Assembly: GCA_029262855.1 (NCBI GenBank)
Contig: JAJCYP010000076.1
Location: forward strand, 4,784-68,783
Length of the DNA: 64,000 bases
From: Bacteroidota bacterium
GTDB taxonomy: Bacteria; Bacteroidota; Rhodothermia; Rhodothermales; UBA10348
Reading direction: 5' to 3'
A program made the translations under genes and the position numbers. Positions within the stretch are counted from its first letter, which is position 1. Each line of letters begins with the position of its first letter. The notes beneath the pieces are model-generated. The model was not told the DNA's origin. It ran no database searches and saw nothing but the letters and a program-made list of their open reading frames with translations. This document shows, in pieces, positions 2,539 through 34,269 of this stretch.

Positions 2539-2611
<73 letters not shown>

Positions 2612-2618
2612 CCCACAG

Positions 2619-2657
2619 ATTCCCGTAACTGATTGCATGGCTTTTGGTTACGGGAAT
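2619..2657. other. 11-bp perfect stem hairpin (ATTCCCGTAAC...GTTACGGGAAT) right after the tRNA
   Basis: Inverted repeat read directly from the sequence, with a 17-nt loop and no clear U-tract. It may be a tRNA terminator or processing structure, or the edge of an island insertion site. Confidence 0.35.
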
Positions 2658-2680
2658 GTTAGTTTGGGGCGCGGGGTTCC

Positions 2681-2830
2681 CTACCGCGTCTTGGCTCCTT
2701 CCCAGACCACGGTGGCGTCGTACCCGATCTGCTGAATCGCTGCAACGAGTTGGTCGTTCGCGGCGGTCTCATGCTGGAGTTCTTCCAAAAGGTCTTTCCA
2801 TTCGTGTAGACGAATACAGGACGATGACAT
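2681..2830 (-). pseudogene. Remnant in-frame fusion mini-ORF (49 aa): ArsR-family regulator N-terminus joined to a MerT-MerP-like C-terminus
   Basis: Translation is MSSSCIRLHEWKDLLEELQHETAANDQLVAAIQQIGYDATVVWEGAKTR*. Positions 2686-2744 match the 3' end of the gene at 18191-18249. Positions 2743-2835 match the 5' end of the regulator gene at 19078-19175, at about 93% identity. The junction lies at the microhomology CAAC-GAG. Confidence 0.6.
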
Positions 2831-2914
2831 GGCGATTAGTTAGGGCGTGGGCTGGCACTTCGCCTTCCGGTGACTCATATTCGGGGAGTCGCGCGATGAG
2901 TCAACCCTGGTGGC

Positions 2915-3838
2915 ATGGAGCAGCGAGTTTGTACTGGAAATGTAGCGCGATTGGCCGTCGGTTTCCTTCTCGCGTCGGTGGGAGCAGGATGTGGTGGGAA
3001 TCAGAGCGTCCCTCAGGTCGACTTCATGAGAGCCGAGGTGGAGCGGCCAGCCTCCGCGCCCGACAAGGAGCGTCCGCTGACTATGGCGGTTTCCGCGATG
3101 ACGTCGCCTCGACAGACTCTTCGCTACTACGACCAGATAGCCCTGGCCATCTCAACCGATCTGGATCGCCCGGTGCAACTGGTCCAGAGGCGCACCTACC
3201 AAGAGGTCAACGACCTCCTCCGGACCGGCCAGGTCGATGTGGCCTTCATCTGCTCTGGCGCCTACGTCGCTGCCCGGGAGGAATTTGACCTTGATCTGCT
3301 GGCCATCCCGCAGATAAATGGGCGCACGACGTACCGGTCCTACATCATCGCGGGGCCTGGCGTCGAGGGCGAGCGCTTTGATGACCTCAAGGGTCGGTCC
3401 TTCGCATTCACGGACCCGTTGTCGAACACCGGGTATCTGTATCCGATGTCGCGACTTGCCGATTCAGGCGAGAGCGCTGAGGTCTTTTTCACCGAGACCC
3501 GATTCACTCACGCGCACGACTACTCGATTCGCGCGGTGCGTCTCGGGACCGTAGATGCAGCGGCGGTGGAGTCACCGGTCTTCGAGTTCATGCGAAAGTC
3601 CGCCCCGGAGGAATTGGCAGGGATCCGTGTGATCGAGATCTCTCCAGAATACGGAATGCCGCCGGTGGTCGCGCCGGCCTCATTGGCGATTGAGGAGCGA
3701 GTGGCCCTGCGGCGTGTCCTGCTGAGAATGCATGGTGACTCACTCGGCCGAGCCGCGCTTTCCGCGTTGCACATCGACCGTTTCCGCGAGGGGGATCCGG
3801 CCGCGTACGACGGGATCCCTGCCCTGCCTGGATCATGA
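2915..3838 (+). CDS. PhnD-like periplasmic substrate-binding protein; lipoprotein-type signal; AioX/ArxX-like sensor partner
   Basis: The 307-aa ORF begins MEQRV...LAVGFLLASVGAGCGG (signal peptide plus Cys). The body resembles phosphonate/phosphite-binding PhnD-family proteins. Its stop overlaps the start of the kinase gene (ATGA). Confidence 0.65.
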   Translation: MEQRVCTGNVARLAVGFLLASVGAGCGGNQSVPQVDFMRAEVERPASAPDKERPLTMAVSAMTSPRQTLRYYDQIALAISTDLDRPVQLVQRRTYQEVNDLLRTGQVDVAFICSGAYVAAREEFDLDLLAIPQINGRTTYRSYIIAGPGVEGERFDDLKGRSFAFTDPLSNTGYLYPMSRLADSGESAEVFFTETRFTHAHDYSIRAVRLGTVDAAAVESPVFEFMRKSAPEELAGIRVIEISPEYGMPPVVAPASLAIEERVALRRVLLRMHGDSLGRAALSALHIDRFREGDPAAYDGIPALPGS

Positions 3839-5352
3839 GCGAAGGACGAAAACGGCTGCACATCCCGATTTTTTGGAAAATTAGCCTGGCGATCGTCTTC
3901 GTGGTCGCGGCTTTCGGATCGGTCAACCTCTACCTGATCCGGCAGAGGGTGACCGACACCGTGATCAAGCAGGCGGTCTACCGGGTCTCCACGCAGGCCG
4001 CTACGTTGGCGGAGTTGCTGCAAAAGGCTCTGTTGTACGATGACCTCATCGAGGTTCGCGAGCAGTTGGTGGACGTCGTTCGGGTTGACTCTACCCTGCA
4101 CTACGCTCTCGTTCTGGGTGCGCACGGTCGAGTGCTCGCGCACACCTTCGAACGGGGAGTACCGTCTGGCCTACCAGAGACCATCCGCGACTCCGATACG
4201 GCCACCGTCTTTCGGCGGACAGACACGGACGAACGGCTGGTCAATGTAAGTGCACTCATTCTGGGCGGACGCCTTGGAGAAGTCCACGTCGGGATGTCTT
4301 TGACATCTATCAACCGGCTTTCGGATGTCGTCCTCCAGACGTTCCTGCTCATGATAGCCGCTTTCCTCGCCACCGGGCTCGGCGGAGCGCTGTTGTTTGC
4401 CCGCTACCTGACGAATCCGGCAAAACGGATCGCGGAAACGGCATCATCGATTCGGCTCGACGAGCTTGGACAGGGCCGCCCTCCAAGTGTTCGGATCCGC
4501 ACGGGGCTTACGAGGGTGCTCCCAGGCGTTCCGCGGGTGGTAGACGAGATGGACATACTCGCTGACCGGTTCAACGAAATGTTGGAGCGACTCGACGGGG
4601 CCTACGCAGAACTCACTGTCGCCCAGGCCATGGCGTTGCGCTCTGAGAAGCTCGCGACAATCGGCACCCTGGCCGCTGGCATCGCCCATGAAGTGAACAA
4701 CCCCGTTGCAGGGATTCGAAACTGCGTTCGACGCATGCGCGAAAACCCCGAGAACGAGGAGCAACGTCAGAGGTACCTGAGTTTGATGGACCGCGCAGCC
4801 GAGCGCATTGGTCGGGTCGTGAGTAGCCTGCTACAGTTTTCCAGAATCCAGGACCAACCATACGCGCCGGTTTCCATCGGGGACGTGGTGGAGCGTGCGA
4901 TGGTTCTCGTGGTCCATCAACTTGAACAGAGCGCCATCTCGGTATCGAAGCGACTGGCCAAGGACGCTCCCATGGTGATGGGTAACGGCGGTGAACTGGA
5001 GCAGGTGGTGGTCAACCTCCTGGTTAACGCGATACATGCAACCGAGGACCGCAGACTGGCAAACGGCACGTTGGACACTCCTTCAAGTAGCATAATTGCT
5101 TCGGTCCGCGAGGCTGGGACAAACGTGCTATTGACCATCGAAGACCAAGGCGTGGGGATATCCGAGGAAGATCTGCAAAGCGCGTTCGATCCGTTCTTCA
5201 CTACGAAAGACTCCGAGAGGGGGACTGGGCTCGGCCTCGCGGTTTGTCGCAAGATTGTGCAGCAGCACGGCGGGAGGATTTCGCTCCGGAATTCTCATCC
5301 GCACGGCGCTGTCGCGGAAGTACTGATTCCGAAGATGAAGGCTAGCGCGTGA
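3835..5352 (+). CDS. sensor histidine kinase with periplasmic loop, HAMP, HisKA, HATPase; AioS/ArxS-like
   Basis: Two predicted TM helices flank a periplasmic domain of about 130 aa. H-box AHEVNNP, G-box DQGVGI and G2-box GTGLGL are present. It overlaps both neighbours, so translational coupling is likely. Confidence 0.8.
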   Translation: MSEGRKRLHIPIFWKISLAIVFVVAAFGSVNLYLIRQRVTDTVIKQAVYRVSTQAATLAELLQKALLYDDLIEVREQLVDVVRVDSTLHYALVLGAHGRVLAHTFERGVPSGLPETIRDSDTATVFRRTDTDERLVNVSALILGGRLGEVHVGMSLTSINRLSDVVLQTFLLMIAAFLATGLGGALLFARYLTNPAKRIAETASSIRLDELGQGRPPSVRIRTGLTRVLPGVPRVVDEMDILADRFNEMLERLDGAYAELTVAQAMALRSEKLATIGTLAAGIAHEVNNPVAGIRNCVRRMRENPENEEQRQRYLSLMDRAAERIGRVVSSLLQFSRIQDQPYAPVSIGDVVERAMVLVVHQLEQSAISVSKRLAKDAPMVMGNGGELEQVVVNLLVNAIHATEDRRLANGTLDTPSSSIIASVREAGTNVLLTIEDQGVGISEEDLQSAFDPFFTTKDSERGTGLGLAVCRKIVQQHGGRISLRNSHPHGAVAEVLIPKMKASA

Positions 5353-6680
5353 TGTCTCAGAAGCTGATCTACGTCGTCGATGACGAGGAAATCATTCGCC
5401 TGACATTGGCGGATGACCTGGCGGACGCGGGTTTCGAGGTTGAGGCGTTTACTGGTGCACGCGACTGCATGGCAGCGGCAACCGCTCGTCGGCCCGACGC
5501 AGTCGTGAGCGACGTCCGTATGCCGGGCATCGACGGCATGGCCCTGCTCAGGCGATTGAAGGAGTTGCATCCGGAGACCTGCGTTATTCTAATGACCGCA
5601 TTCGGTACCGTCGACACTGCCGTTGAGGCGATGAAGGCGGGAGCATTCGATTACGTCACCAAGCCCTTCGACCTCGACGAGCTCCTGATCCTCTTGTCCC
5701 GCGCCTTTGAGTTAGTCGGCAGCCGAAAGGAAATCCGTAGCCTCCGAGACCGATTGGGCGAGAATCATTCGCCAGAGTCCTACCTGGGCTCCAGCAAGAC
5801 GGCGGCGGAGACACGACGTCTTCTGCAGGAAGTGGCGGTCACCGAGGCGACCGTCCTCCTTGTTGGTGAAACCGGAACCGGCAAAGAACTGGCCGCCGGC
5901 GTCATTCATCACAGAAGCGGGCGTGCCTCCTCGCCCTTCATTCGAGTGAGTTGCGCCGTGCTTTCCAGGGAGGTATTCGAAAGCGAGCTGTTCGGCCACG
6001 TCAAGGGGGCATTCACCGGTGCCGAAAGGTCCCGCGGAGGACGATTTCAGGCAGGGAACGGGGGAAGCGTGCTGCTGGATGATATCGATGACATTCCACT
6101 CGACCTTCAGGTCAAACTACTTAGGGTACTTCAGGAACGAGAGGTAGAACCCGTCGGGGCGAGCCATCCTGTGCCGATAGACGTCCGAGTGATTGCCGCT
6201 ACGAAGAAGGACCTCGGCGAACTGGTCCGCCAGGGAAGTTTTCGGGAGGACCTGTACTACCGACTCAACGTGCTCCCGGTGGTTCTGCCTCCCTTGAGGG
6301 AGCGCCCGGAAGACATCCCTGACCTGGTTTTTCACTTCGCACGACAGATGGGTTGCCGGGCGGACGCGTTCTCCGAACAAGCGATCGCACGCCTCTGCTC
6401 GCACGACTGGCCGGGCAACGTGAGGGAACTGCGCAATGCGGTCGAGAGGATGGTGCTACTATCTGGAGGCCGCTGTATAGATATCGACAGGGTCCCCAGC
6501 GAAATCTCCACCTCGACCGGCGCGGAACCCCGATCTCTTGAAGCGCGGGTGGCGGCATTTGAGCGTGGGCTCATCGAGCAGGCGCTCGATCGATCAGGAG
6601 GGAATCGCGCAGAGGCGGCTCGTTTCCTCCAAATTCCTGCTTCCACACTAAGGAGCAAGCTGGGCAAGCACGAGCTGTAG
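5352..6680 (+). CDS. sigma-54-dependent response regulator (NtrC family: REC + AAA+ + Fis-type HTH); AioR/ArxR-like
   Basis: Receiver domain (VVDDEEIIRL...DVRMPGIDG). Walker A GETGTGKE, the GAFTGA sigma-54 contact motif, and a C-terminal HTH. The ATG overlaps the kinase TGA. Confidence 0.85.
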   Translation: MSQKLIYVVDDEEIIRLTLADDLADAGFEVEAFTGARDCMAAATARRPDAVVSDVRMPGIDGMALLRRLKELHPETCVILMTAFGTVDTAVEAMKAGAFDYVTKPFDLDELLILLSRAFELVGSRKEIRSLRDRLGENHSPESYLGSSKTAAETRRLLQEVAVTEATVLLVGETGTGKELAAGVIHHRSGRASSPFIRVSCAVLSREVFESELFGHVKGAFTGAERSRGGRFQAGNGGSVLLDDIDDIPLDLQVKLLRVLQEREVEPVGASHPVPIDVRVIAATKKDLGELVRQGSFREDLYYRLNVLPVVLPPLRERPEDIPDLVFHFARQMGCRADAFSEQAIARLCSHDWPGNVRELRNAVERMVLLSGGRCIDIDRVPSEISTSTGAEPRSLEARVAAFERGLIEQALDRSGGNRAEAARFLQIPASTLRSKLGKHEL

Positions 6681-6860
6681 GATGCGCGAGGATTCGCGGT
6701 TACCCTCCAAATATCGCGCCCTTCCTCTTTGCCGAACCGACCTGCGAGATGGAGCTAAGTCGTGCAAACACATGCCCATGATGAGGTTACGTGAATAGCC
6801 TGGCCCCGATCGGTACGCGATTCGTTTGCGGGGCCAGTCCGAGTCATCTCTGCCGTCCTC

Positions 6861-7853
6861 ATGACACAATCGAAGCCCTCGCTCCAGGACCGTTTCGGAC
6901 GGAGGCACACGTACCTTCGCCTTGCGGTTACCGAGCGTTGCAACCTCCGATGCCAATATTGCATGCCGGAGGAGGGATCCCCCAAGCGCTCCACGAACGC
7001 CTACCTGTCCGATCACGAGATCCTGACGGCGGTCGCGGCACTTGCGAGGACCGGGGTTGACCGCGTACGGCTCACGGGGGGTGAGCCGCTGGTTCGAAAG
7101 AACGTTCTGACCCTCGCCAGGCAACTCCGCGCCTGTGAGGGCATTGAGTCGGTTCGGTTGACGTCGAACGGCCTGCTACTCGGTCGGCACCTGCCGGAAC
7201 TGTTAGAGTCCGGAATCGACACGGTCAACGTCAGTCTCGATACGCTTCGTCCGAAGCGCTTCGAGCATATCACCGGTGGCACGGGTCACTCCACGATCCT
7301 GAGAGCAATCGACGACCTGATCGCAACCGGTGTCGTTCGGACAAAAATCAACGTCGTGTTAATGGCCGGAGTGAATGATGACGAGGTCGAGGACCTCGTC
7401 GCGTTCGTCCAGGATCGTCCGGTCGACATACGGTTCATTGAATTCATGCCCTTCGTTCAGAACGGCTGGAGCAAGGATCGGTACGTAGCTGAGCACATCA
7501 TCGTTGAGCGGCTTCGGCGGCGGTTCTCACTGAAGGTGGCGCCCACCGCAAAGAACGACACAGCCGTGATGTACCGAATTGCCGGCCATAGCGGCCGCAT
7601 CGGGTTCATCTCATCTGTTTCCAGCCCGTTCTGTCGAAACTGCAATCGACTACGGATTTCGGCGACCGGCCAATTCAGATCCTGCCTGTTTGGTGCGCCT
7701 AGCCTGGACCTGCGGAGTTTGCTCCGAGGTGGTGGGGATGAGAACGTGATTACTTCGGCCGTGCGCGGCGCCCTGCTTGGCAAGCACTGGGCTCACGATG
7801 GAAGACGGTCCTCGTCCGAAGCGGGTGCCCCGATGATCGCGATTGGCGGCTAA
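6861..7853 (+). CDS. moaA: GTP 3',8-cyclase MoaA (radical SAM, molybdenum cofactor biosynthesis)
   Basis: N-terminal CNLRCQYC radical-SAM motif and TGGEPL. MoaA family length (330 aa). Confidence 0.85.
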   Translation: MTQSKPSLQDRFGRRHTYLRLAVTERCNLRCQYCMPEEGSPKRSTNAYLSDHEILTAVAALARTGVDRVRLTGGEPLVRKNVLTLARQLRACEGIESVRLTSNGLLLGRHLPELLESGIDTVNVSLDTLRPKRFEHITGGTGHSTILRAIDDLIATGVVRTKINVVLMAGVNDDEVEDLVAFVQDRPVDIRFIEFMPFVQNGWSKDRYVAEHIIVERLRRRFSLKVAPTAKNDTAVMYRIAGHSGRIGFISSVSSPFCRNCNRLRISATGQFRSCLFGAPSLDLRSLLRGGGDENVITSAVRGALLGKHWAHDGRRSSSEAGAPMIAIGG

Positions 7854-8098
7854 GACGGGCCCCCGCGGACAAGCCGCTGTCAGTTGACTCAGACGGGGGG
7901 CGGCCTCGACTGTTCGGGTCGGTGGGCGATCGCAGTGGTCTCTTCTCACAACCCAGCGCCGAGTCGGCAACCGGCGGGGTTTCGCTCGCACGACGCGAAA
8001 TCTCGCGCATGCATTTGGGTCAACCCCGAAAGCGATGACTGGATATGGGGTTGTAAAACATGGACTTGACGGTCCTTTCCGATTCACTCGGGCCCAAA

Positions 8099-8113
8099 CG
8101 GCACGCTGTTGGT
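8099..8113 (+). promoter_or_regulatory. weak candidate sigma-54 (-24/-12) promoter upstream of the porin gene
   Basis: CGGCACG-N4-TGGT, 55-70 nt upstream of the ATG at 8167. The -24 half matches GGCACG well. The -12 half reads GT instead of the near-invariant GC. Confidence 0.2.
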
Positions 8114-8166
8114 GAAGAGGCTGACGAACCCAAACGAGACTCTTCGCCTCACGACCATAGACAGAC

Positions 8167-9177
8167 ATGAAAACCAAATACGTCCTGTTTTCTCTGGCCC
8201 TGCTGATCACCCTGCCGGCAGTGGCGCAGAACACGAAGATCAGCGGTTACATGTTCGGCGACGCGTACTACGTGGCCGCGGCTCCCGACGAAGACCTCGA
8301 AGGTAGAAGCGGCTTCCAATTCCGCCGAATTTACGTGACCCTGGACAGCGGTATCTCTGAGAACTTCGATACGAGGTTCCGCATCGAGGCAGCACACCCG
8401 GGCGACTTCACCACCAAAGCCAAAATGACGCCGATCGTCAAGGACGCCTATCTCCGTTGGAAAAAATCGGGCCACTCGGTCTATTTCGGACTGTCATCCA
8501 CACCAACCTGGTCGCGTCTGGAGTCCTTCTGGGGGTTCCGGTCGGTTGAGAAGACCCCGCTGGACCTGTACAAGTACGGCTCCTCACGCGACTTCGGCAT
8601 CGCGGCCAAGGGTCCTCTCGGATCGAGTGGCCGGCTGTCCTACCACGCGATGGTAGCGAACGGATCGGGTACGTCCTCGGAGACCAATGACGGCAAGAAG
8701 GCGCTGCTCTCGCTGGCTGTCGAAATGGTTGATGGTCTCACCTTTGAGGCCTACGGTGATTTTGAAGGCCTCGAGGGCGACACGGACCGGTCGACGCTCC
8801 AGGGCGCGCTCATGTACGGCGCGGACTGGGGGCGCGTTGGGCTCAGCTTCGCCCGTCACTCCCGCGGAGTTGCGGATGCAGATGCGATGACATTCGATGT
8901 GGCATCGGCCTTCATTGCTGCCGCCGTGTCGGATCGCAGCGATGCCTTCGTCAGGGTCGATCATCAGTTCGATCCCAACCCGTCAGCTGCCGGGATCTCA
9001 TATGTGCCGTTCGCGACGGCCGATGCGACGACTTTCCTGGTTGCCGGACTATCGATCAAGGCCGCAGACAACGTCTTTCTCCAGCCGAACGTGGAGCTGG
9101 TCTCCTACAGCATGGACACGGGAGACGCCCCTGCCGCGACGGTCATCCCTCGAATCACGGTCTACTTCAAACACTAG
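8167..9177 (+). CDS. outer membrane porin (signal peptide, beta-barrel, C-terminal ...YFKH)
   Basis: Signal peptide MKTKYVLFSLALLITLPAVAQ. Amphipathic beta-strand pattern throughout. The C-terminus has an aromatic residue at position -3. Confidence 0.6.
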   Translation: MKTKYVLFSLALLITLPAVAQNTKISGYMFGDAYYVAAAPDEDLEGRSGFQFRRIYVTLDSGISENFDTRFRIEAAHPGDFTTKAKMTPIVKDAYLRWKKSGHSVYFGLSSTPTWSRLESFWGFRSVEKTPLDLYKYGSSRDFGIAAKGPLGSSGRLSYHAMVANGSGTSSETNDGKKALLSLAVEMVDGLTFEAYGDFEGLEGDTDRSTLQGALMYGADWGRVGLSFARHSRGVADADAMTFDVASAFIAAAVSDRSDAFVRVDHQFDPNPSAAGISYVPFATADATTFLVAGLSIKAADNVFLQPNVELVSYSMDTGDAPAATVIPRITVYFKH

Positions 9178-9228: not shown

Positions 9229-10179
9229 ATGGATCCGGAAATTGTCTATAACGTCCAGCAGGGCTTCTTCTGGGACTGGAAGGTCGCACTAGACCTCTTC
9301 CTCGGAGGAGCCGGAGTCGGTGCCTTCCTCGTTTCCGTGGGCCTGTATGAGTTTTGGGGTCGGAAGTACAAGCGCATCCCGCAGACAGCGGCATTTCTTG
9401 CGCCGGTTCTGGTCGGCGTTGGGGTTCTCATACTGATGCTAAAGCTCGGGCGACCCTTCCACATTTTTGAGACGTTCATCAACTTCGCGCCAACAGCTCC
9501 TCTCTGGTGGGGAGGCGTGTTCCAGACGCTCTTTATCGCGGGAGCGTTGTGGTACGCGCTTCTCTGGAGGGACTTGGAGCCCAATCCCAAGCGTAGGAAG
9601 CTCGGCCTGGCCTTGACGCCCCTAGCGCTGATTGTGGGTGGTTATCACGGGATGCTGCTCGCGGTAATTCCAGCGCGACCGCTGTGGAATACAGGACCGA
9701 CTGTACTCGCCGCCCTCGCCGCGTTTGTGACCACCGGTATCGCGGCCGTCATGCTTGTGCACCTGATCCGGATGAAGCTCGGCGGCCGTCTGGCGGATCC
9801 AGAGCACGTGCAGACCTTCCTGACCGATCTGACTCCGGTCAGACATGTGCTTGTGGGCGGGCTGATTCTCCAGTTAGGGACCTTCTTTCTCTGGTGGCAG
9901 AGCCTTCGCTTCGGAGATCTCGCGGATCGAACGGCGCTCGCCGTCGCCAACGCGGGCTTCGGGCCGATGTACTGGTGGCTGGGGATTGGCGTGGGTCTTG
10001 TGCTCCCGATAATTCTGGGGGTCGCCGCGGTCTGGAAGGACAGCCCCGAATACAATCCGCGGCGCCTGGTCTGGACAGTCGGAGTCGCGAGTTGTTTGAT
10101 ACTCGTGGGGGGGTTCTTCTTCCGCCTTTCTGTCGTCCTTGCAGGGCAACTCAACCCGCTGTACGTCACGCTCCCGTAG
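9229..10179 (+). CDS. NrfD/PsrC-family membrane anchor subunit of a molybdopterin oxidoreductase (ArrC/ArxC-like)
   Basis: 316 aa, polytopic with about 8 TM helices, NrfD-like. SD-like GGGAGG upstream. Lies immediately upstream of the catalytic subunit. Confidence 0.7.
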   Translation: MDPEIVYNVQQGFFWDWKVALDLFLGGAGVGAFLVSVGLYEFWGRKYKRIPQTAAFLAPVLVGVGVLILMLKLGRPFHIFETFINFAPTAPLWWGGVFQTLFIAGALWYALLWRDLEPNPKRRKLGLALTPLALIVGGYHGMLLAVIPARPLWNTGPTVLAALAAFVTTGIAAVMLVHLIRMKLGGRLADPEHVQTFLTDLTPVRHVLVGGLILQLGTFFLWWQSLRFGDLADRTALAVANAGFGPMYWWLGIGVGLVLPIILGVAAVWKDSPEYNPRRLVWTVGVASCLILVGGFFFRLSVVLAGQLNPLYVTLP

Positions 10180-10186
10180 AGAAGCC

Positions 10187-12763
10187 ATGATTAACCAAAA
10201 TGATATCACCATGACCGGGAAGGGTCTCTCCCGCCGCAGCTTTCTTAAGCGGACGAGTTGTGTTGGCGGGCTCGCGATTATCGGCGGTTCCCCGCTTTTG
10301 ACCTTCTTTACCGAGGACACCTCGGCCCAGCCCGCTGCACTCTTGGCTCGATGGGTAGCTTCTACCTGCCAGGGTTGCACAAGCTGGTGCCCAGTGGTGG
10401 TCAAAGTGGTGGACGGCCGCGTCGTCCACCTGGCTGGCAACCCTGAGTCGAAGGCAAACCATGGGAAAATCTGCCCACGGCCGAACCTCGCGCTTCAGCA
10501 GGTCTATGATCCGGACCGGCTGAAGACGCCCATGCGGCGCACGAATCCCAGGAAGGGACGGGACGAGGACCCGCAGTTCGTGCCCATCAGCTGGAATGAG
10601 GCCATGGGTCTTATCGCCGACAAAATGATGGAACTCCGCGAGAACGAGGAGACCCACAAATTCGTTTTCTTCCGGGGGCGCTACAGCTACAACCGCGACA
10701 TCATCTACAGCTCGGTGCCCAAGATATTCGGGTCGCCCAACGGCATTAGCCACTCTGCCATCTGTGCCGAGGCAGAGAAGTTTGGCGCCTACTACACGGA
10801 GGGCTACTGGGACTACCGCGACTACGACCTCGAACACACGCGATACGTGCTGTGCTGGGGTGCCGATCCGCTCTCATCAAACCGTCAAGTCCCGCACGCC
10901 ATCAACATTTGGGGCCATGTTCGCGACCGCGCAGAGATTGCTGTCATTGATCCTCGACTCTCAGCCACGGCTGCGAAAGCAAACGAGTGGCTCCCCGTAC
11001 TTCCCGGGGAAGACGGTGCCTTGGCTGTGGCCATGGCACATGTCATCTTGCGGGAGGGCCTCTGGAGCCGGGAGTTCGTGGGCAACTTTGCGGACGGAAC
11101 CAACCGGTTCCTCCCCGGCCAGACCGTGGACGAGCAGACCTTCGAGGAGATTCACACCAACGGCGTCGTGCGCTGGTGGAACCTGGAACTGAAGGATCGG
11201 ACGCCCGAGTGGGCGGAGACCCAGTGCGGCATTCCGGCAGACCAGATCCACCGTGTGGCAACCGGATTCGCGAAGGCGGCGCCAGCTGCCATCAGTTGGG
11301 TGTCTCCCGGCGCATCCATGCAGGCCAGAGGCGGGTATGCCGCCCTTGCAGCTCACGCCTTGAATGGCCTGGTCGGGTCCGCCGACAGTCAAGGCGGCAC
11401 CGTCCAAAAAACCAAGGTGCCAGCAGATGCCCTGCCCGACTTTTCGGCCTACCAGGACGACTTGGCCAAGAAGCTGTCAAAGAAACCGAAGATGGATCGG
11501 CGGGGCAGCCTTTCATTCCCAGCGCTTAATGCTGGAAAGAGCGGTGGTGGCGTCGTAACAAACAACGCGGCCGACTCCATTCTGAACGAGGATCCCTACG
11601 AGATCAAGGTGGCGATTGCCAACTGGGCCAACTTCGCCTTCTCGTGCTCGGGATCGGACCGCTGGGAACGTGCGCTCTCGAAACTGCCGTTCTTCGTGCA
11701 TATCACGACAAACCCGTCAGAGACCAGTCATTTTGCGGATATCGTACTCCCGGCGGCCCACCAGCTCTTCGAGAAATGGAGCTTCCTCAAATCGAAGCAG
11801 AACCTGCACGGCTACGCTAGCCTCACACAACCCATGATCGAGCCTCTCTGGGACGTCCGTCAGGACGAAACGGAGGTGCCCTGGTTGCTGGCCGAGGCGC
11901 TCGCGGAGCGCGGGTTCGACAACATGCTACGGTATTTCCAGGAGGCTTTTGCCGATCCCGAGACCGGGCAGCATCCAAGGACCAGCGCCGAGTTTGCCCT
12001 GACGTCCACGAAGATGTTCACCAGCCCGTGCTGGCATTCGGCCCACAAGGACTACGGAAAGTATGGGGACGCTCTGAACGGCTGGGACGACTTCGTGAAG
12101 AAGGGTGTGTGGAACTCGCACCGATTTGAAACGGGGAAGACGTGGGGCAAGTTCGGCACCGTCACGGGTCGCTTCGAATTCTACAGCGAAACACTGAAGA
12201 AGGCGCTCCAGGGCCACGCCGACAAGCACGGGGTGGGAATCGATGACGTGCTGGCGGCGACCAACTACACCGCTACCGGCGAGTTGGCCTTCTTGCCGCA
12301 TTTCGAGCCCGCGCTGCGGTGGGGCGATCCGTCGGAATTCCCGCTCATCTTCTTCGAACACCGGAGCCGTCTGAACCGCGAGGGTCGCTCGGCGAACTGC
12401 ACCTGGTACCAAGCCCACAAGGACGCTGACCCGGGCGACGAGAACTGGGACGATGTGCTGAAAATGAACCCGGTCGACGCGGAGCGACTCAATCTCACAG
12501 ACCGCGCAATGGTGCGGGTGGTTTCGACCACGGGTGAGATCACCGTAAGGCTGAAGCTATGGGAGGGCGTCCGCCCGGGCACCGTGGCTAAGTGCTACGG
12601 ACAAGGCCACTGGGCCTATGGACGAGTCGCGGCCACCGATTTTCAGCGGCGCATCCCTCGCGGCGGGAACAACAACGTGATCCTTCCCGCCGAGTACGAG
12701 CGGTTGAGTGGCTCGACCGCCCGCCACGGCGGCGTCGCTCGCGTAAAGGTCATCGCTGCATAA
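10187..12763 (+). CDS. molybdopterin (bis-MGD) oxidoreductase catalytic subunit, TAT-exported; Psr/Phs/Arr/Arx clade (candidate ArrA/ArxA)
   Basis: Twin-arginine leader SRRSFLK. N-terminal [4Fe-4S] motif C-X2-C-X3-C-X27-C (CQGCTSWC...27...C). About 860 aa. Followed by Fe-S and TorD subunits. The ATG at 10187 is preferred over the upstream ATG at 10139. Confidence 0.8.
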   Translation: MINQNDITMTGKGLSRRSFLKRTSCVGGLAIIGGSPLLTFFTEDTSAQPAALLARWVASTCQGCTSWCPVVVKVVDGRVVHLAGNPESKANHGKICPRPNLALQQVYDPDRLKTPMRRTNPRKGRDEDPQFVPISWNEAMGLIADKMMELRENEETHKFVFFRGRYSYNRDIIYSSVPKIFGSPNGISHSAICAEAEKFGAYYTEGYWDYRDYDLEHTRYVLCWGADPLSSNRQVPHAINIWGHVRDRAEIAVIDPRLSATAAKANEWLPVLPGEDGALAVAMAHVILREGLWSREFVGNFADGTNRFLPGQTVDEQTFEEIHTNGVVRWWNLELKDRTPEWAETQCGIPADQIHRVATGFAKAAPAAISWVSPGASMQARGGYAALAAHALNGLVGSADSQGGTVQKTKVPADALPDFSAYQDDLAKKLSKKPKMDRRGSLSFPALNAGKSGGGVVTNNAADSILNEDPYEIKVAIANWANFAFSCSGSDRWERALSKLPFFVHITTNPSETSHFADIVLPAAHQLFEKWSFLKSKQNLHGYASLTQPMIEPLWDVRQDETEVPWLLAEALAERGFDNMLRYFQEAFADPETGQHPRTSAEFALTSTKMFTSPCWHSAHKDYGKYGDALNGWDDFVKKGVWNSHRFETGKTWGKFGTVTGRFEFYSETLKKALQGHADKHGVGIDDVLAATNYTATGELAFLPHFEPALRWGDPSEFPLIFFEHRSRLNREGRSANCTWYQAHKDADPGDENWDDVLKMNPVDAERLNLTDRAMVRVVSTTGEITVRLKLWEGVRPGTVAKCYGQGHWAYGRVAATDFQRRIPRGGNNNVILPAEYERLSGSTARHGGVARVKVIAA

Positions 12764-12784: not shown

Positions 12785-13477
12785 ATGGCAAAGCGATATG
12801 GCATGGTGATCGACCTCCACAAGTGTGTGGGGTGTGCGGGTTGCGACATTGCCTGCAAGTCCGAGAACAACGTTACGGACGGTTTCGCGTGGTCCAACCA
12901 CATTTTGGAAACCCACGGTACCTTTCCCGATGTTCAATTCCGGTACATCCCGACGCTGTGTAATCACTGCGAGGACGCGCCGTGCGTGGCGAACTGTCCA
13001 ACCACGGCGATGCACAAGTCGGAGGACGGGCTGACACTCCACGATGCTTCGAAGTGCATTGGCTGCCGAGCATGCCAGGTAGCATGTCCCTACGGCGTAA
13101 TCTACTTCAATGAGAAAGCGCCTCATCCGCGCTTCATGGAAGACGACGAGGCCCTGATCCCAGGAGTTACGTCAACCGGGCAGGAGACTGCCGAGGCATC
13201 CGGAGCTCCGATTCCATACTACAACCCGGCGCGGGCTGAAACATATCCGGACATCCGACCGAAGGGGATTGTAGAGAAGTGCACGTTCTGCGACCACCGG
13301 CTTGCCAAAGGGGAGTTGCCCGCCTGCGTCGATGCATGCCCGGCCGATGCCCGTCTATTCGGTGATCTGGATGATCCGAATAGCGCTCCGGCCCAAGCGC
13401 TGGCCAAGCACGATTCCGATGTGCTGAAGCCAGAGCAGGGCACGAAGCCTCGCGTTTTCTACATTCGCGACTACTAA
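12785..13477 (+). CDS. 4Fe-4S ferredoxin-type electron-transfer subunit (PsrB/ArrB/NrfC-like)
   Basis: Four Cys clusters: CVGCAGCDIAC, CNHCEDAPCVANCP, CIGCRACQVACP, CTFCDHR..CVDACP. Strong SD AAGGAGA upstream. Confidence 0.85.
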   Translation: MAKRYGMVIDLHKCVGCAGCDIACKSENNVTDGFAWSNHILETHGTFPDVQFRYIPTLCNHCEDAPCVANCPTTAMHKSEDGLTLHDASKCIGCRACQVACPYGVIYFNEKAPHPRFMEDDEALIPGVTSTGQETAEASGAPIPYYNPARAETYPDIRPKGIVEKCTFCDHRLAKGELPACVDACPADARLFGDLDDPNSAPAQALAKHDSDVLKPEQGTKPRVFYIRDY

Positions 13478-13490: not shown

Positions 13491-14117
13491 ATGGAGGAGT
13501 CCGCTGTCGAAACGGTTGTGCTGGATCAGGCCAGTCTTTTCTTCGCCTTGGCGCGCGCACTCGAAGAACCAAGGAAGTGGGGTGATGATCTCCCCTCAAT
13601 CATTCGCGCAGGGCTGGGTACAGGCCTCCCGCCCCTATCGACGCTCGGAGAGCGGCTGGCCGTCGAAGCCGGTGAGGCGCTTTCCGAGAGGGAGCAGATG
13701 TCGATTGAGCACGCCAGGTTGTTTGTGGGTCCGTTCGAAATAGTCGTCCCTCCCTGGGCGTCGCTTTATCTGGAAAAGGACGCCAGGCTGATGGGCGAGA
13801 TCAGCCAGCAAGCGGCGCGTGCTTACGCCGAGGCTGGGCTCGCGCCGGCGGCCGACCTCAGGGAGGCGCCGGACCATGTAACGCATGAATTGGAGTTCAT
13901 GTACTACCTGGCCTTTCAGGAGGCGACCGACAAGGACGGCGTCTGGCACGCCAGGCGGGCCGCCTTCTGGGTATCCCATTTGGGCCGGTGGCTGCCGCAA
14001 CTCGCCACCAAGCTCGCGGAAGCGAGCACTCACCCGTACTATGAGTCGCTGGCCGCTGCCTTGGCAGTGATCTGCCGTCGCATGGACCTCCTCTTTACCG
14101 ATGCTACAGAGGCGTGA
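13491..14117 (+). CDS. TorD/DmsD-family redox enzyme maturation chaperone (ArrD/ArxD-like)
   Basis: 208 aa, TorD-like length and composition. Sits directly after the Fe-S subunit. Confidence 0.6.
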   Translation: MEESAVETVVLDQASLFFALARALEEPRKWGDDLPSIIRAGLGTGLPPLSTLGERLAVEAGEALSEREQMSIEHARLFVGPFEIVVPPWASLYLEKDARLMGEISQQAARAYAEAGLAPAADLREAPDHVTHELEFMYYLAFQEATDKDGVWHARRAAFWVSHLGRWLPQLATKLAEASTHPYYESLAAALAVICRRMDLLFTDATEA

Positions 14118-14482
14118 AGGGGGGTCAGGCCGAATTTAAAGCGCTTTTAATCTCGCAATGCACTATGTCTCAACTCCCTCCGCCTCCCTCCGCCTACAAC
14201 CAGTTCGTGGACCGCTATCCGGATCTTGAGAGAGCTTGGGAGAGCATGGCCAAGGCTGGCACAGATGGCCCGCTCGACGCCCGGACTCAGCGTCTTATCA
14301 AACTTGCCATTGCTGTTGGTGCCATGAGAGAAGGGGCTGTCCATGCGAGTGCCCGAAAGGGTGTCGCGATGGGCATCGAGGCCAGCGAAATGGAGCAGGT
14401 AGTAGCGCTGGCCGCGAGCACGCTGGGAATGCCCTCTACGGTCGCGGCCTTTAGCTGGGTACAAGACGTCCTGAAACCCTAA
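14114..14482 (+). CDS. carboxymuconolactone decarboxylase / AhpD-like family protein
   Basis: AhpD-like core of about 110 aa. Its start overlaps the TorD stop by 4 nt. An alternative start is MSQLPP at about 14165. Confidence 0.5.
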   Translation: MKGGQAEFKALLISQCTMSQLPPPPSAYNQFVDRYPDLERAWESMAKAGTDGPLDARTQRLIKLAIAVGAMREGAVHASARKGVAMGIEASEMEQVVALAASTLGMPSTVAAFSWVQDVLKP

Positions 14483-14600: not shown

Positions 14601-16445
14601 TTACCCACGGTCCAGGAAGACTGGCGATGGGAGAATAGCTCGCTCGCCTCGTTTGCCAAATGCCTGGGCCTGTGGCCCGAGCGCCACGGAGAGATCACCC
14701 ACATACTCGGTTAGAGCGTCAACGCCGGACAGTTCCTTTGCCATCCAGGGCACCAGAAAGGTCCGTGTCGCATGCGTCTTGGCTACCAACTGAATTTGGC
14801 GTATCTCCGCCGCTGCCCGCGCCACGAGCAGCTTGTCCGTCGGCGACGCCGCAGCGAGGCTCTGGTTTATGACCCAGGCATACGGCGTGATGCTGGCGCG
14901 ACGGAGGTCGGCTTGCAGGCCTGCCGCCTCGAGGACAGGTGTCGTCTCAGGTAGTGTGACGATCAGCAGCTTGGTGTATGCGGGATCCTGCAGGCGCATC
15001 AGTGGGGTGGTGGCCCTTCCAGCCAGGCCGCGGGAGTTGCGCTCGACCTCTCGGTGGTAGGCGCCTGTCTGATCCAGCAGCAGCAGAGTGTGACCTGTTG
15101 GAGCGGTATCCAGCACAACGAATCCGCGCGCCGCTTCTCGCACCAGGTTCGAAAAGGCATGGAACACCGCCACTTCCTCGGTGCACGGGCTTCGGAGGTC
15201 CTCCTCGAGAAGCTTCTTGGCGTCGTCATCCAGATCCTTTCCTTTGGTGGCAAAGACGCGATCCGTGTACCTGCGAACCTCCTCCGCCGGATCAATGCGG
15301 CTCACGGTCAATCCTGGAAGGGAGCCCTTGACTGTCTGGACCAGGTGGGCGGCGGGATCGGTTGTAGAGAGATGCACGGTGTGGCCGTGCCTGGCCAACT
15401 CGACTGCCACCGCAGCGGCTATCGTCGTCTTGCCGACTCCTCCCTTTCCCATCACCACCACAAGTCCTTTTCCGGCGGCCTCGATATCCTGAACAAGGTC
15501 CGCGAGGGACGGGAGCTGCGGTGGCGCGGGAGGTTGGGCGGTGGCGGCTGGGCCGCCTGATACGCCAGACGCCAAGGCCCTCAGATGGGCGAGGCCGACC
15601 AGGTTGTGCGGCTGCAGTGGCACCGTATCGATGGGCAGTGACCGGAGTTCGGAGGGCAAGTTGTCCATCGCCGCCACCTGCCTGCGCTGCATGCCGGCGG
15701 CAAGTGGATCAGTCGACTCCGTGAGTGAAAAGACACCGTTGACCACGAGCCGCTGGCTCAATATGCCGAGATCTGCCAGCTCGTGGGCGGTCCGGGCGGC
15801 CTCGTTGAGAGCAGCCGGTTCGGGTCGGGTGACCAAGACCAGCGTCGTCGTCGCGGGATCGCGCAGCGAGTCGACGGCGGCGGCGTACTGTACGCGCTGA
15901 GACTGGAGTCCAGAGGCGGGGCCAAGGCACGATGCCCCGTCTGGGTTCGTGTCAATGAAATCGCCCCAGGCTGCGGGCAGTTGAAGCAGACGGAGTGTGT
16001 GTCCGGTCGGCGCGGTGTCGAAGACCACGTGGTCGAAGTCCTCCATCAGCGAGGCATCCGTCAGCAGCCGGGTGAAGGCATCGAACGAGGCGATCTCGGT
16101 TGTACAGGCGCCAGACAGACTTTCGGTGATCTGCTCAATAGCCGCAGGTGGGAGGAGCTGTCGAACGGGTTCTATCACGCGGTCACGATAGGCCTGAGCC
16201 GCTGCTTCCGGATCGATATTGACTACGTCAAGAAGCGGCACGCCCGACACACTCCGTACCTCGTGAGTGACCTCCGTCTCAAGCACCTGACCCAGATTGG
16301 ATGCAGGGTCGGTCGAAACCAGCAGCACGCGATGACCCTGGTCTGCCAGGGCAACAGCCGTAGATGTGGCAAGAGTAGTCTTGCCAACGCCGCCCTTGCC
16401 GGTGAAGAAAAGGTATCTCGTGGGCGATGTGATGAGAGTACGCAT
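14601..16445 (-). CDS. arsA: arsenical pump-driving ATPase ArsA (two homologous halves)
   Basis: Two P-loops GKGGVGKTT (the N-half reads MRTLITSPTRYLFFTGKGGVGKTT), DTAPTGH motifs in both halves, about 614 aa. Start taken at the internal ATG at 16445 that precedes the P-loop. Confidence 0.9.
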   Translation of the reverse strand: MRTLITSPTRYLFFTGKGGVGKTTLATSTAVALADQGHRVLLVSTDPASNLGQVLETEVTHEVRSVSGVPLLDVVNIDPEAAAQAYRDRVIEPVRQLLPPAAIEQITESLSGACTTEIASFDAFTRLLTDASLMEDFDHVVFDTAPTGHTLRLLQLPAAWGDFIDTNPDGASCLGPASGLQSQRVQYAAAVDSLRDPATTTLVLVTRPEPAALNEAARTAHELADLGILSQRLVVNGVFSLTESTDPLAAGMQRRQVAAMDNLPSELRSLPIDTVPLQPHNLVGLAHLRALASGVSGGPAATAQPPAPPQLPSLADLVQDIEAAGKGLVVVMGKGGVGKTTIAAAVAVELARHGHTVHLSTTDPAAHLVQTVKGSLPGLTVSRIDPAEEVRRYTDRVFATKGKDLDDDAKKLLEEDLRSPCTEEVAVFHAFSNLVREAARGFVVLDTAPTGHTLLLLDQTGAYHREVERNSRGLAGRATTPLMRLQDPAYTKLLIVTLPETTPVLEAAGLQADLRRASITPYAWVINQSLAAASPTDKLLVARAAAEIRQIQLVAKTHATRTFLVPWMAKELSGVDALTEYVGDLSVALGPQAQAFGKRGERAILPSPVFLDRG

Positions 16446-16482
16446 GGCGGGCACCAAGGGTGTTTCGTCGATCAGTCGTGGA

Positions 16483-16872
16483 TCAGCAGCAATCCGAACC
16501 GCTGTCCCCACAGCACGTCTCGGAGGTGACTTGCGCCGGGGTCTCCCGTCCACTGGCCCTACCGGACGGGCCGAATTGCAGGAGATGCGCCATTTCCACT
16601 AGGGACGGATGGCACCCCCGACTTACGATGAGACCATCCACGAGGAGGAGTGGCAGAACATCCATCCCTTCTGTGGTGATGGTCTGGTAAACCAGCGGAT
16701 GATTGACGAACGCGTCGGGGTTCGTGGCGAGGTTGAATCGTGATACTTCCGTGCCGAGGGCGGCCACCGATTTCAGGTCGGCGGCAAACTGAACCAGAAC
16801 GGGATCCGGATCACTTCCGCAAAGGCCAGTGGAGCAGCACATGGCAGGTTCGAATACCTGGAGATGAGGCAT
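16483..16872 (-). CDS. arsD: arsenic metallochaperone / trans-acting repressor ArsD
   Basis: MPHLQVFEPAMCCSTGLCG is the ArsD Cys12/Cys13/Cys18 motif. 129 aa. Start is the internal Met of the ORF-track ORF. Confidence 0.85.
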   Translation of the reverse strand: MPHLQVFEPAMCCSTGLCGSDPDPVLVQFAADLKSVAALGTEVSRFNLATNPDAFVNHPLVYQTITTEGMDVLPLLLVDGLIVSRGCHPSLVEMAHLLQFGPSGRASGRETPAQVTSETCCGDSGSDCC

Positions 16873-16904
16873 GATGAGTAGCGATTGGTGATACGCAGTT
16901 CCAA

Positions 16905-17276
16905 CTATTGTTGGTCGTGGAGGGAAGCCAAAGCGACCTCGGGCATGCAGCGAGCCTTCTCGCCCCTGTCCAGTACTTGTCCCAAAATGGAATCCAGGCC
17001 TTCTCGGAGGCGGAGTAGTTGCTGGCGGTCCAGGCAGTAGCAAGTTCGCTGCCCGTCCGTGTGGCTCACCACGAGGCCGGCCTGCTTGAGCACCTTGAGG
17101 TGCTGCGAAACAGTTGATTGCGCCAGAGGCAGCGCCTCAACGAGTGCGCCACACACGCATGCGTCTGCTTCCGCCAGCTCACGCAGTATGGCGAGCCGGG
17201 CCGGGTGGGCCAGGGCCTTCGCGCCTTCGGCTATACCACCGAGCAAATCGGGAAAAAGGTCAGCTTTGGACTGCAT
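16905..17276 (-). CDS. arsR: ArsR/SmtB-family metalloregulator
   Basis: HTH with the metal-binding CVC (ADACVCGALVEAL). First gene of the arsR-arsD-arsA operon. Confidence 0.85.
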   Translation of the reverse strand: MQSKADLFPDLLGGIAEGAKALAHPARLAILRELAEADACVCGALVEALPLAQSTVSQHLKVLKQAGLVVSHTDGQRTCYCLDRQQLLRLREGLDSILGQVLDRGEKARCMPEVALASLHDQQ

Positions 17277-23087: not shown

Positions 23088-24383
23088 ATGCCATCATTCC
23101 GCCTATTCGTTCTCGCGCTGGCTATTCTTGTCACCGGCCTGTCCAGCAAGGCATTGGCTCAGAATTCCCCGCCTGCCCCGGCGTCAAGGGAGCCGGTCAT
23201 CCACCTTGATGAGCTCATCCTAGAAGCGCTCGAGCGCAATCCGAGACTGCGCGCAACCCGTCTCGACGCAATCGCTCGCAGGGCGAGGGTCCTTGGCGCA
23301 GGAACACTACCTGACCCACTGTTTGAGGTTACCTATCAACCAGCGCCCGTGCTAACCGCGCGCGGAGCACAGCGGAGTCAGTGGCGCATCCAGCAGGTCA
23401 TTCCCTACCCGAAAAAGCGCAGCCTTCGCGCCGATATTGCCGGCGTTGAGGCCGACGTCGGTGAATCCCGGGCCGGGGTTTTGGCGGCAGATGTTGTGCT
23501 TCAAATACATGAGGTCTATTACGAACTCTACCGCAGCCAGCAGCGGGCGGCGCTCCTGAAGGAGTTCCAGACAGATCTCCGGCAGTTCGAGGATGTCACG
23601 GTGACCAGGTACGCGGTTGGGAGGGAGGCCCAGCCGAGTATCCTCAAGGTGCAGCTGGAACGGAACGCCATCAATCTTCGGTTGGAGCTTCTCGGTGAAC
23701 AGCGGCGGTCGACCGTCGCTCGGTTGGCAGCACTTCTCGACAGGCCCGACATGGGTGACCTGGGGGGCCGTATCGAGCTGCCGGAGGCACATCTACTGGA
23801 AGGGACGCTTCAAGCCGCCCTTGACCTGCTTCCGGAGGCGCACGAAGCGCGGCTTGAGACCCGTCTCCAAGACCTCAGGGTCTCTCTGGCCGAGCGCGAC
23901 TTCAGGCCCGACTTCTCGCTTGGCCTTACTTATTACGACATCGGATCGAGAGGCGTGACCGCCACCATGACTGGTCAGGATGCGGTAGCGATTACGGCTG
24001 GTATCCGAATCCCGATGTGGCGAGATCGCTTGAGAAGCAACCTGGATGCGGCTCGGGCTGCCCGCGGCGCGGTCGACGCGCACTACGAGGCGCTGATCCT
24101 GGACGTCCAGACTCAGACAACGAGTCTCAGAGAGAATGGAGCTCGCCAGAGACGGCAGCTTGAACTCATCGATGGCGTGCTCCTCCCCCAAGCCGAGGCA
24201 GCGGTCGAATCGTCCCTAACCCTCTACGCGACCGGCGAGGTAGGCTTTCTGGACGTGATCGATTCACAAAGAACACTCCTCGAACTGCGCCTCAGCCGCA
24301 TCGAGACCTTGGTCCGCTGTCTCAACACCGCGGCAGCCTTCGAACGAGCCATGGGCCGCTTTCCAACCCATGAAACCAATTAG
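23088..24383 (+). CDS. outer membrane efflux factor (TolC/CzcC family), heavy-metal RND system 1
   Basis: Signal peptide, LEEALERNPRL start, two OEP repeats. Confidence 0.8.
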   Translation: MPSFRLFVLALAILVTGLSSKALAQNSPPAPASREPVIHLDELILEALERNPRLRATRLDAIARRARVLGAGTLPDPLFEVTYQPAPVLTARGAQRSQWRIQQVIPYPKKRSLRADIAGVEADVGESRAGVLAADVVLQIHEVYYELYRSQQRAALLKEFQTDLRQFEDVTVTRYAVGREAQPSILKVQLERNAINLRLELLGEQRRSTVARLAALLDRPDMGDLGGRIELPEAHLLEGTLQAALDLLPEAHEARLETRLQDLRVSLAERDFRPDFSLGLTYYDIGSRGVTATMTGQDAVAITAGIRIPMWRDRLRSNLDAARAARGAVDAHYEALILDVQTQTTSLRENGARQRRQLELIDGVLLPQAEAAVESSLTLYATGEVGFLDVIDSQRTLLELRLSRIETLVRCLNTAAAFERAMGRFPTHETN

Positions 24384-28988: not shown

Positions 28989-29110
28989 TCGCGTCGTCGA
29001 CTCAAGGGCGGTAGCCGTTGGAAGCTTAGTACTATACGTCAAGTGGCCGGTCGAATACGCCAGGTCAGCCGGCCCGAAACCGAACCACCACGGTGTCGTA
29101 GGCCTTCGCG

Positions 29111-29563: not shown

Positions 29564-29792
29564 TCGACCCGGCAGACTGACCTCTGGCGAGGCGTTCTTC
29601 GCCCGACCATGGAGGTCCCCCCAAGCCGGCAATCAAGTCCCGGGCCTGAGGTCTGCCCAAGCGGGAATCTCCTGAGTACGCCCACGGCCCCGAGGTCCGT
29701 TGTGCGCGGCCAGCGCCGCTTGGTACGGCGCCGGCCCTATTCCAATACGTGGCACCGAACCAGTCTGGCGGCGTCACCGAACTCCCTACACC

Positions 29793-34214: not shown

Positions 34215-34269
34215 GATGACATCACGATCAAACGCAGACCGCCTCCTCCCACTGAGACCCCTGAATCCG

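Follow-up and report, generated by a model that had tools for sequence, protein, structure and literature searches.

AioX, ArxX, and ArrX form a sensing subfamily of binding proteins that share a ligand pocket (Y88, C106, Y131, S161, S163, H192, and D210), of which Cys106 is absent from PhnD (Badilla et al. 2018, PMC5908839). Despite the conserved pocket, the ligand is arsenite for AioX and ArxX and arsenate for ArrX; selectivity is not determined by the pocket residues, and the three X proteins tested each bind the substrate of the enzyme with which they are paired (PMC5908839). Together with a kinase (S) and a regulator (R), these proteins make up the AioXSR, ArxXSR, and ArrXSR systems, the last also called ArrTSR, a name from Saltikov 2011 as cited in PMC5492636. 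The ArrR of Epsilonproteobacteria is AtoC-type, like AioR and ArxR, and that of Chrysiogenes and Firmicutes is CitB-like (PMC5908839). In Melioribacter roseus, ArrTSR lies upstream of an arsenate-induced Ttr-like enzyme (PMC5492636). Here we describe a locus in a 64,000-nucleotide stretch of a Bacteroidota genome (assembly GCA_029262855.1, contig JAJCYP010000076.1, positions 4,784 to 68,783; Rhodothermales), the whole of which we refer to as the window. We consider it likely that its genes arrX, arrS, and arrR constitute an ArrXSR (= ArrTSR) three-component arsenate-sensing system that controls moaA and a porin-arrCABD-cmd operon. An earlier reading made from the DNA letters alone (the sequence-only reading) had called the architecture AioXSR/ArxXSR-like. 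The X-S-R type is indeed the same, but the closest named system and best label is ArrXSR/ArrTSR, because the regulated enzyme is an arsenate reductase. Systems of this type have already been described (2011/2018; PMC5908839, PMC5492636), and the locus is an ordinary further example.

With the AtoC-type variant of ArrXSR/ArrTSR the locus shares the X-S-R order, an AioX-subfamily protein, a membrane kinase, an AAA+ sigma-54-type regulator, and adjacency to arrCAB(D). It differs in its Rhodothermales-like lineage, in an X protein that is 37.5% identical to the one characterized ArrX, in a Glu in place of Asp210, in a predicted regulon that takes in moaA and a porin gene, and in the atypical -12 element of its candidate promoters. 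The Chrysiogenes arsenatis ArrX/ArrS/ArrR system also adjoins arrAB, and its ArrX, which binds arsenate (PMC5908839), is the best solved match of the X protein here (6x6b); however, its ArrR is CitB/FixJ-like without an AAA+ domain (PMC5908839), and is therefore sigma-54-independent, whereas the regulator here is NtrC/AtoC-type. AioXSR (Rhizobium sp. NT-26, Agrobacterium) and ArxXSR (Alkalilimnicola ehrlichii, Ectothiorhodospira, Azoarcus) share the three-protein logic, the regulator family with its (here predicted) RpoN-dependent target promoter, and most of the pocket, including Cys106. Arsenite is the signal and arsenite oxidases are the targets in those systems, whereas the enzyme here is Arr, with RGRY, a C-A-B gene order, no Rieske/AioB, and no arxB2; arxXSR is also usually divergent from its operon (PMC6549141), and here all genes are co-directional. 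The M. roseus ArrTSR has the same X-S-R arrangement with a sigma-54-type R and ars genes nearby, and a related Melioribacter locus (L076) also has a porin gene and a tandem activator site; the M. roseus enzyme is of the Ttr clade with B-C-A order, in contrast to the canonical Arr clade here.

Sensor, kinase, and regulator genes

The three regulatory genes are overlapping open reading frames (ORFs) on the forward strand, arrX at 2915..3838, arrS at 3835..5352, and arrR at 5349..6680. The arrX stop and the arrS start share ATGA (3835-3838, a 4-bp overlap), and the arrS stop and the arrR start share GTGATG (5349-5354). We take ATG 5352 as the probable start of arrR because it is the start called publicly on L001, an identical contig; a look-up of the 443-aa version of ArrR in the protein collection found no entry. 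For arrX, a 270-aa public call begins at Met38 and is without any signal peptide (window 2915-3025). The start at 2915, which gives a protein of 307 aa, is preferred because the resulting N-terminus is hydrophobic and carries Cys26 where the homologues have the consensus L-x-x-x-G-C; the 307-aa version is also present in another assembly (P0121). The same N-terminus suggests that this PhnD-fold, predicted periplasmic oxyanion-binding sensor protein is probably lipid-anchored.

ArrS, a sensor histidine kinase of 505 aa, contains HAMP, HisKA (2e-14), and HATPase_c (8.6e-23) domains in Pfam. By hydropathy it is a two-transmembrane kinase in which hydrophobic segments 7-36 and 161-190 bracket a loop of ∼125 aa, and its H-box, HEVNNP, contains His285. 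ArrR combines Response_reg (4.9e-29), Sigma54_activat (5.2e-63), AAA_lid_14, and HTH_8 domains with D55, a Walker A motif (GETGTGK) at 173, and GAFTGA at 220-225. With a receiver Asp, an AAA+ domain carrying Walker A and GAFTGA, and a C-terminal Fis-type helix-turn-helix, it is an NtrC/AtoC-type, sigma-54-dependent enhancer-binding response regulator; its best NCBIfam likeness is to AtoC/NtrC, under the equivalog cutoffs. The Pfam matches of the three proteins are strong and well above chance level. Coordinates, Pfam domains, and residues all agree with the sequence-only reading, which had recognized three overlapping genes for a PhnD-like protein, a kinase with a periplasmic loop, and a GAFTGA regulator.

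ArrX matches the Pfam family PF12974 (Phosphonate-bd, E 7.9e-56) and exceeds the 112-bit cutoff of subfamily TIGR01098 by a little (115.9 bits), and the public annotation of its homologues uses the corresponding transporter name. These observations would fit an ordinary PhnD/PtxB phosphonate/phosphite ABC-transporter binding protein that has nothing to do with the kinase, an explanation that the remaining evidence effectively refutes. In a phmmer search against the PDB, the nearest solved structures are C. arsenatis ArrX (6x6b, E 1.7e-50) and then AioX (1.3e-42), and the transport proteins match far more weakly (PtxB, 5.9e-18; HtxB and PhnD, 4.5e-11 to 5e-4); the ArrX/AioX matches outrank those of PtxB/PhnD by at least 30 orders of magnitude. 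The neighbors of arrX are a tRNA gene upstream and the overlapping kinase gene downstream, with no permease or ATPase gene beside it. When one genome per species was scanned, 342 relatives of X were found, and of the 80 loci examined, 72 have a kinase gene adjoining X. The sequence-only reading had allowed that the binding protein might group with phosphonate transporters; no such grouping is seen, as the PhnD equivalog TIGR03431 fails (95.8 bits against a cutoff of 261.1 bits) and no phnCE genes flank arrX. These matches place X in the AioX/ArxX/ArrX subfamily, within which the Arr, Arx, or Aio branch is not assignable by sequence alone. Since X is equally far from ArrX (37.5% identity) and AioX (38.2%), the Arr label rests on the genomic context and not on X itself.

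The downstream enzyme and the probable ligand

The catalytic subunit gene of that context, arrA (10187..12763, forward strand, as are all operon genes below), encodes a molybdopterin protein of 858 aa whose start agrees with the public gene call. It aligns to the ArrA of Shewanella sp. ANA-3 (6cz7) with 979 bits and 52.6-52.8% identity over 796 positions, begins with a Tat signal (SRRSFLK), and contains the motif FFRGRYSY. The (R/K)GRY form of this motif marks ArrA, as opposed to XGRGWG in ArxA (PMC6549141). Among 1.84 billion representative proteins searched, all full-length relatives with at least 44% identity carry [RK]GR[YS], and the sole GRGWG representative (P0274) is 31.8% identical. 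The flanking genes are arrC (9229..10179), for an NrfD/PsrC-type quinol-oxidizing membrane anchor (PF03916 NrfD, 7.1e-28) with six or more distinct hydrophobic segments (seven listed, of which two overlap); arrB (12785..13477), for a four-cluster iron-sulfur subunit with 16 Cys (NF041715 ArrB, E 4.4e-101); and arrD (13491..14117), for a TorD/NarJ-type maturation chaperone (PF02613, 1.8e-25). The gene order is thus C-A-B-D. A C-A-B order belongs to the Arr clade, B-C-A to Ttr-type, and A-B-C to Psr-type enzymes (PMC2500031).

Two arsenite oxidases were considered and rejected. An Aio enzyme does not fit a score of 21 bits against the 359-bit cutoff of TIGR02693 (arsenite_ox_L) or a partner subunit that is four-cluster ferredoxin-type and not Rieske. 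Against an Arx enzyme, the motif is RGRY and not GRGWG, and the operon lacks a B2 gene and has the anchor gene ahead of A. From the identity to ArrA, the RGRY motif, the C-A-B order, and the low AioA score, we assign the downstream enzyme as a respiratory arsenate reductase with a quinol-oxidizing anchor, not Arx or Aio. The sequence-only reading had found moaA and an NrfD-A-B-TorD operon downstream of the regulatory genes; those genes are present, although the porin gene at the head of the operon had been missed and the enzyme had not been named as ArrA. The last operon gene (cmd, 14114..14482) encodes a small CMD/AhpD-like protein (PF02627, 9.8e-11). It lacks a CxxC and recurs in two related operons headed by X-S-R genes, at the same position in L006 (12621-12932, 46%) and in L033 (20139-20453, 47%).

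The sequence-only reading had proposed an arsenic oxyanion as the likely signal, and this reading is supported. The signal is probably arsenate, which we favor over arsenite because the regulated enzyme reduces arsenate. In the alignment, Y88/C106/Y131/S161/S163/H192/D210 of the AioX pocket line up with Y95/C113/Y140/S170/T172/H201/E219 of X, so that five positions, including the Cys106 equivalent, are identical and two are conservatively changed (Ser163 to Thr172 and Asp210 to Glu219). Thr at the Ser163 position is the majority state among the X homologues. A pocket with the arsenite-bonding Cys106 of AioX kept as C113 and otherwise AioX-like (PMC5908839) would also suit the same XSR cascade with arsenite, the product of Arr and the ligand of AioX and ArxX, as its effector; X resembles AioX (38.2%) and ArrX (37.5%) to the same degree, and the pocket does not fix selectivity (PMC5908839). 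We nevertheless regard arsenite as an improbable effector. The enzyme is an arsenate reductase, and in three of three cases the tested X proteins bind the substrate of the cognate enzyme (PMC5908839). A weak further hint is that the ArrX alignment spans the region of the AioX 53-61 signaling loop (query 47-306), whereas the NT-26 AioX alignments start past that loop, at query 69. The use of the loop as a discriminator between arsenite and arsenate was dropped because the residue numbers of the aligned AioX chain (8ed5) disagreed with those given in the paper. A comparison of pocket residues across enzyme classes found no position that separates arsenate-type from other X proteins. Because the sensor pocket does not reveal the ligand, calls of "arsenic sensing" made in metagenomes from X alone are unsafe.

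Predicted ArrR sites and promoters

Upstream of the sigma-54 promoters of related loci, the 12-mer RCGRAAWTYCGY occurs as tandem copies with an 8-nt spacer, in a ∼20-bp register. The promoters themselves are canonical in these relatives (e.g., TGGCAT-N5-TTGC) and are located in the interval from R to the next gene downstream; scores of at least 18/21 are reached in 9/32 loci on the sense strand and in 0/32 on the antisense strand. A position weight matrix (PWM) was built from 20 sites in 12 loci, with no window sequence among them, and tested on 20 other loci. In 16 of these independent loci a tandem pair lies no more than 700 bp beyond the R stop, in most cases inside the first 90 bp, and the density of pairs is 1.25 per kb within those 700 bp versus 0.034 per kb elsewhere. 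The window contains only two tandem pairs in 64 kb, both of them in the intergenic regions after R; randomized sequence would be expected to give 3.4 pairs per 64 kb and ∼0.03 in these 493 bp. In a first Markov-shuffle control of single-site scores, the random top scores exceeded the real top score. For this reason, we argue the significance of the sites from pair counts, position, and the independent loci.

Candidate ArrR site 1 (6686..6717, no strand assigned) reads GCGAGGATTCGC-N8-TCCAAATATCGC and begins 6 bp past the arrR stop, upstream of moaA, in the same placement as the pairs of the 16/20 independent loci. Candidate site 2 (7974..8006, no strand assigned), GCGGGGTTTCGC-N9-GCGAAATCTCGC, lies upstream of the porin gene, and it is the top-scoring pair and contains the top single PWM match of the window (7995). 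Both can be compared with two close relatives, L083 (JGI 3300085088) and L082, whose ArrA is 90% identical to that of the window; nucleotide identity to them is ∼80% from 8091 through the porin-arr genes and ∼72% over arrS-moaA, and the R and S proteins of L083 are 81% and 71% identical. Both half-sites of site 1 are kept in L083, and both half-sites of site 2 are kept in L083 and L082, within an otherwise diverged moaA-porin spacer. We regard the two tandem pairs as probable ArrR binding sites on the strength of this comparison.

Each site is followed at a similar distance by a candidate sigma-54-type promoter on the forward strand. The first, CGGTACGCGATTCGTT (6811..6826), has a GG-N10-GT form, ∼111 bp past the center of site 1, and precedes moaA (6861..7853, forward strand), which encodes GTP 3',8-cyclase of molybdenum cofactor synthesis (TIGR02666, 337 bits against a 284-bit cutoff). 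It is aligned and partly kept in L083, as CGGCATACGATTGGTT, and its consensus score is weak, at 14.5/21. The second, CGGCACGCTGTTGGTG (8099..8114), which would serve porin-arrCABD, has a good -24 and an atypical -12 element and is located ∼110 bp past site 2 and 68 bp before the ATG. Here the window, L083, and L082 share the 15-mer CGGCACGCTGTTGGT without any change, between flanks that diverge, and the last 15 nt before the porin ATG are also kept in L083/L082. Between site 2 and this promoter there is a conserved block, TTGTAAAACATGGACTT (8051..8067, forward strand; TTG.AAAACA..GACTT in L083 and L082), which is possibly a DNA-bending site. The two promoter elements are, on their alignment and position, probably atypical sigma-54 promoters. 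Scans for sigma-70 promoters and terminators stayed at chance level and were uninformative, and Rfam searches returned tRNA only; neither moaA nor the porin gene has a molybdenum cofactor riboswitch, or any other, upstream of it. Right after the moaA stop, a G+C-rich stretch of ∼90 bp (7859-7960) falls in an alignment gap in L083/L082.

The first gene of the predicted regulated operon (8167..9177, forward strand) encodes an outer-membrane porin of 336 aa with a signal peptide. It has no Pfam match above threshold (Porin_O_P is sub-threshold, with E 0.011), and database names for its homologues are porin or phosphate-selective porin O and P. Because a sequence search of the PDB gave no meaningful match, structure prediction and Foldseek were needed: the AlphaFold2 model (predicted local distance difference test score of 92.2) has ∼16 beta-strands, and its best fold match in the PDB is the anion-selective Omp32 (2fgq, template modeling score of 0.69). 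Homologues of this porin follow X-S-R in 15/80 loci, ahead of Arr, Ttr-like, and Psr-like enzymes alike. A reasonable putative role is the entry of the anionic substrate into the periplasm, where ArrX and ArrAB act; no dedicated arsenate porin was found in the literature. The predicted regulon includes, besides the arr genes, moaA for molybdenum cofactor synthesis and a dedicated porin.

Taken together, these features suggest the following cascade, in which the identity of the ligand, the contact between X and S, and promoter activation are our inferences. ArrX in the periplasm would bind arsenate, and the liganded protein, by analogy, may dock on the ∼125-aa periplasmic loop of ArrS. The domain content suggests that ArrS would then autophosphorylate at His285 and pass the phosphate to Asp55 of ArrR. 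Phospho-ArrR is predicted from the comparison of loci to bind the tandem RCGRAAWTYCGY sites at 6686-6717 and 7974-8006, from which its AAA+/GAFTGA domain would activate sigma-54 RNA polymerase at the promoters ∼110 bp past each site, with predicted transcription starts near 6837 and 8125. These promoters would drive moaA, for cofactor supply, and porin-arrC-arrA-arrB-arrD-cmd, and the operon would provide entry of arsenate to the periplasm and a quinol:arsenate reductase. The tandem 12-mer in its ∼20-bp register offers a testable DNA-site model for an XSR family regulator.

Several observations weigh against this assignment. In the sensor, Glu at the Asp210 position is rare, being found in 2/80 homologues, and the pocket is identical to those of homologues beside Ttr-like and Psr-like enzymes, so that the ligand is not set by sequence. 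On the enzyme side, although NF041714 (ArrA) and NF041715 (ArrB) are the best-matching families of the two subunits, ArrA scores 1124.6 bits with the former, under the strict cutoff of 1600 bits, and ArrB scores 337 bits with the latter, under 450 bits. Both promoter candidates have GT and not GC at -13/-12, and their scores of 14.5-15/21 equal background; a search for TGGCACN5TTGCW with up to two mismatches gave 17 matches versus 24 expected, none in either intergenic region. No rpoN gene was found in the 64-kb window. Finally, the closest relative, L083, has S-R-moaA-porin-arrCABD, and tblastn did not find arrX beside S; X may therefore be dispensable there or encoded elsewhere. The gene upstream of S in L083 (1-1500, versus window 2600-3865) is a small lipoprotein-like gene unrelated to arrX. 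Behind arrD, this relative has an alanine racemase gene and neither the CMD gene nor the ars genes.

Spread of the module and neighboring genes

Among the 42 related loci with at least 8 kb of downstream sequence, a complex iron-sulfur molybdoenzyme is encoded in 29: Arr in 10 of them (RGRY in every case), a Ttr-like enzyme (∼1050 aa, B-C-A) in 10, and a Psr/Phs-like one in 9. The best named relatives are Rhodothermales metagenome-assembled genomes (MAGs). One of them (L006) has a complete X-S-R-porin-C-A(75%)-B-D-cmd-moaA arrangement with arsA just upstream, and the order R-moaA-porin also occurs in L022 and L083. The locus adds a Rhodothermales-like lineage to the carriers of a complete, self-regulated arsenate-respiration island beside arsRDA and heavy-metal efflux genes, which bears on the prediction of arsenic mobilization from metagenomes. 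Of more use are the comparative by-products, namely the family-wide activator-site motif, the predicted moaA/porin regulon, and the spread of the module to non-Arr molybdoenzymes.

This spread also allows for an explanation in which the signal is a different tetrahedral oxyanion (phosphate, thiosulfate, tetrathionate, or selenate) or the module has its main regulon elsewhere, and its adjacency to arr is incidental. X-S-R modules at 37-49% identity stand beside Ttr-like, Psr/Phs-like, or no-molybdoenzyme (EB_dh/DUF5777/YceI) operons, X has a weak match (64 bits, with a cutoff of 250 bits) to TIGR04553, a family of putative selenate-binding proteins, and C. arsenatis ArrX binds phosphate weakly as well (PMC5908839). 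We hold this explanation to be very unlikely. Both predicted sites are directly upstream of moaA and porin-arr and nowhere else in the 64 kb, X-S-R together with arr recurs in 10 independent genomes, and the Ttr-like enzyme of M. roseus that accompanies ArrTSR is itself arsenate-induced (PMC5492636).

X-S-R modules of the same clade head Psr/Phs-like operons in L007, L022, L026, and L042, and Ttr-like, B-C-A operons in L018, L033, L035, L037, and L076. These non-Arr operons share the tandem activator sites and often the porin, and their enzymes fall under the named NCBIfam equivalog cutoffs. Given the arsenate induction in M. roseus, the non-Arr associations of the module may also be arsenic-related. 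We tentatively raise the possibility, which we consider doubtful at present, that X-S-R, the RCGRAAWTYCGY sites, and an anion-type porin form a portable arsenate-sensing and arsenate-admitting cassette across many phyla, and that this cassette marks its Ttr- and Psr/Phs-like enzymes as unrecognized arsenate reductases. If this were true, ∼19 of the 42 informative loci, those with Ttr-like or Psr/Phs-like enzymes, would be affected, and a hint that now comes from M. roseus transcript levels would be extended beyond that single case.

In three other loci, X-S-R is followed by a cassette of an EB_dh-like heme protein, a DUF5777 beta-barrel, and YceI (L011:6256-9397, L065:7303-10533, and L025:13965-16562). 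These loci belong to Bacteroidales or Lentimicrobiaceae MAGs and have no molybdoenzyme within reach. In a Hyphomicrobiales MAG, the EB_dh/DUF5777/YceI cassette lies upstream of arrA (L032:13939-17127).

Around the regulatory genes and the operon, the window contains further arsenic and metal genes. The arsA, arsD, and arsR genes follow the operon on the minus strand (14601-17276), as the sequence-only reading had stated in placing the locus beside arsRDA. On the other side, a tRNA-Ala(GGC) gene (2538-2615) directly precedes arrX, and its position next to the arr, ars, and metal-efflux genes may suggest an arsenic/metal island inserted at a tRNA gene; base composition, however, is uniform over the whole window. 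Three heavy-metal-type resistance-nodulation-division (RND) efflux systems (OEP, HlyD_D23, and ACR_tran) span 23088-42053. Within them, an ORF of 1504 aa (29700-34214) joins a full ACR_tran pump to a C-terminal OEP, which may reflect a genuine fusion, a read-through, or a frameshift introduced by sequencing. Next to the RND region lies an OmpR-type two-component pair (42150-44350), and the remainder of the window also holds several two-component systems.

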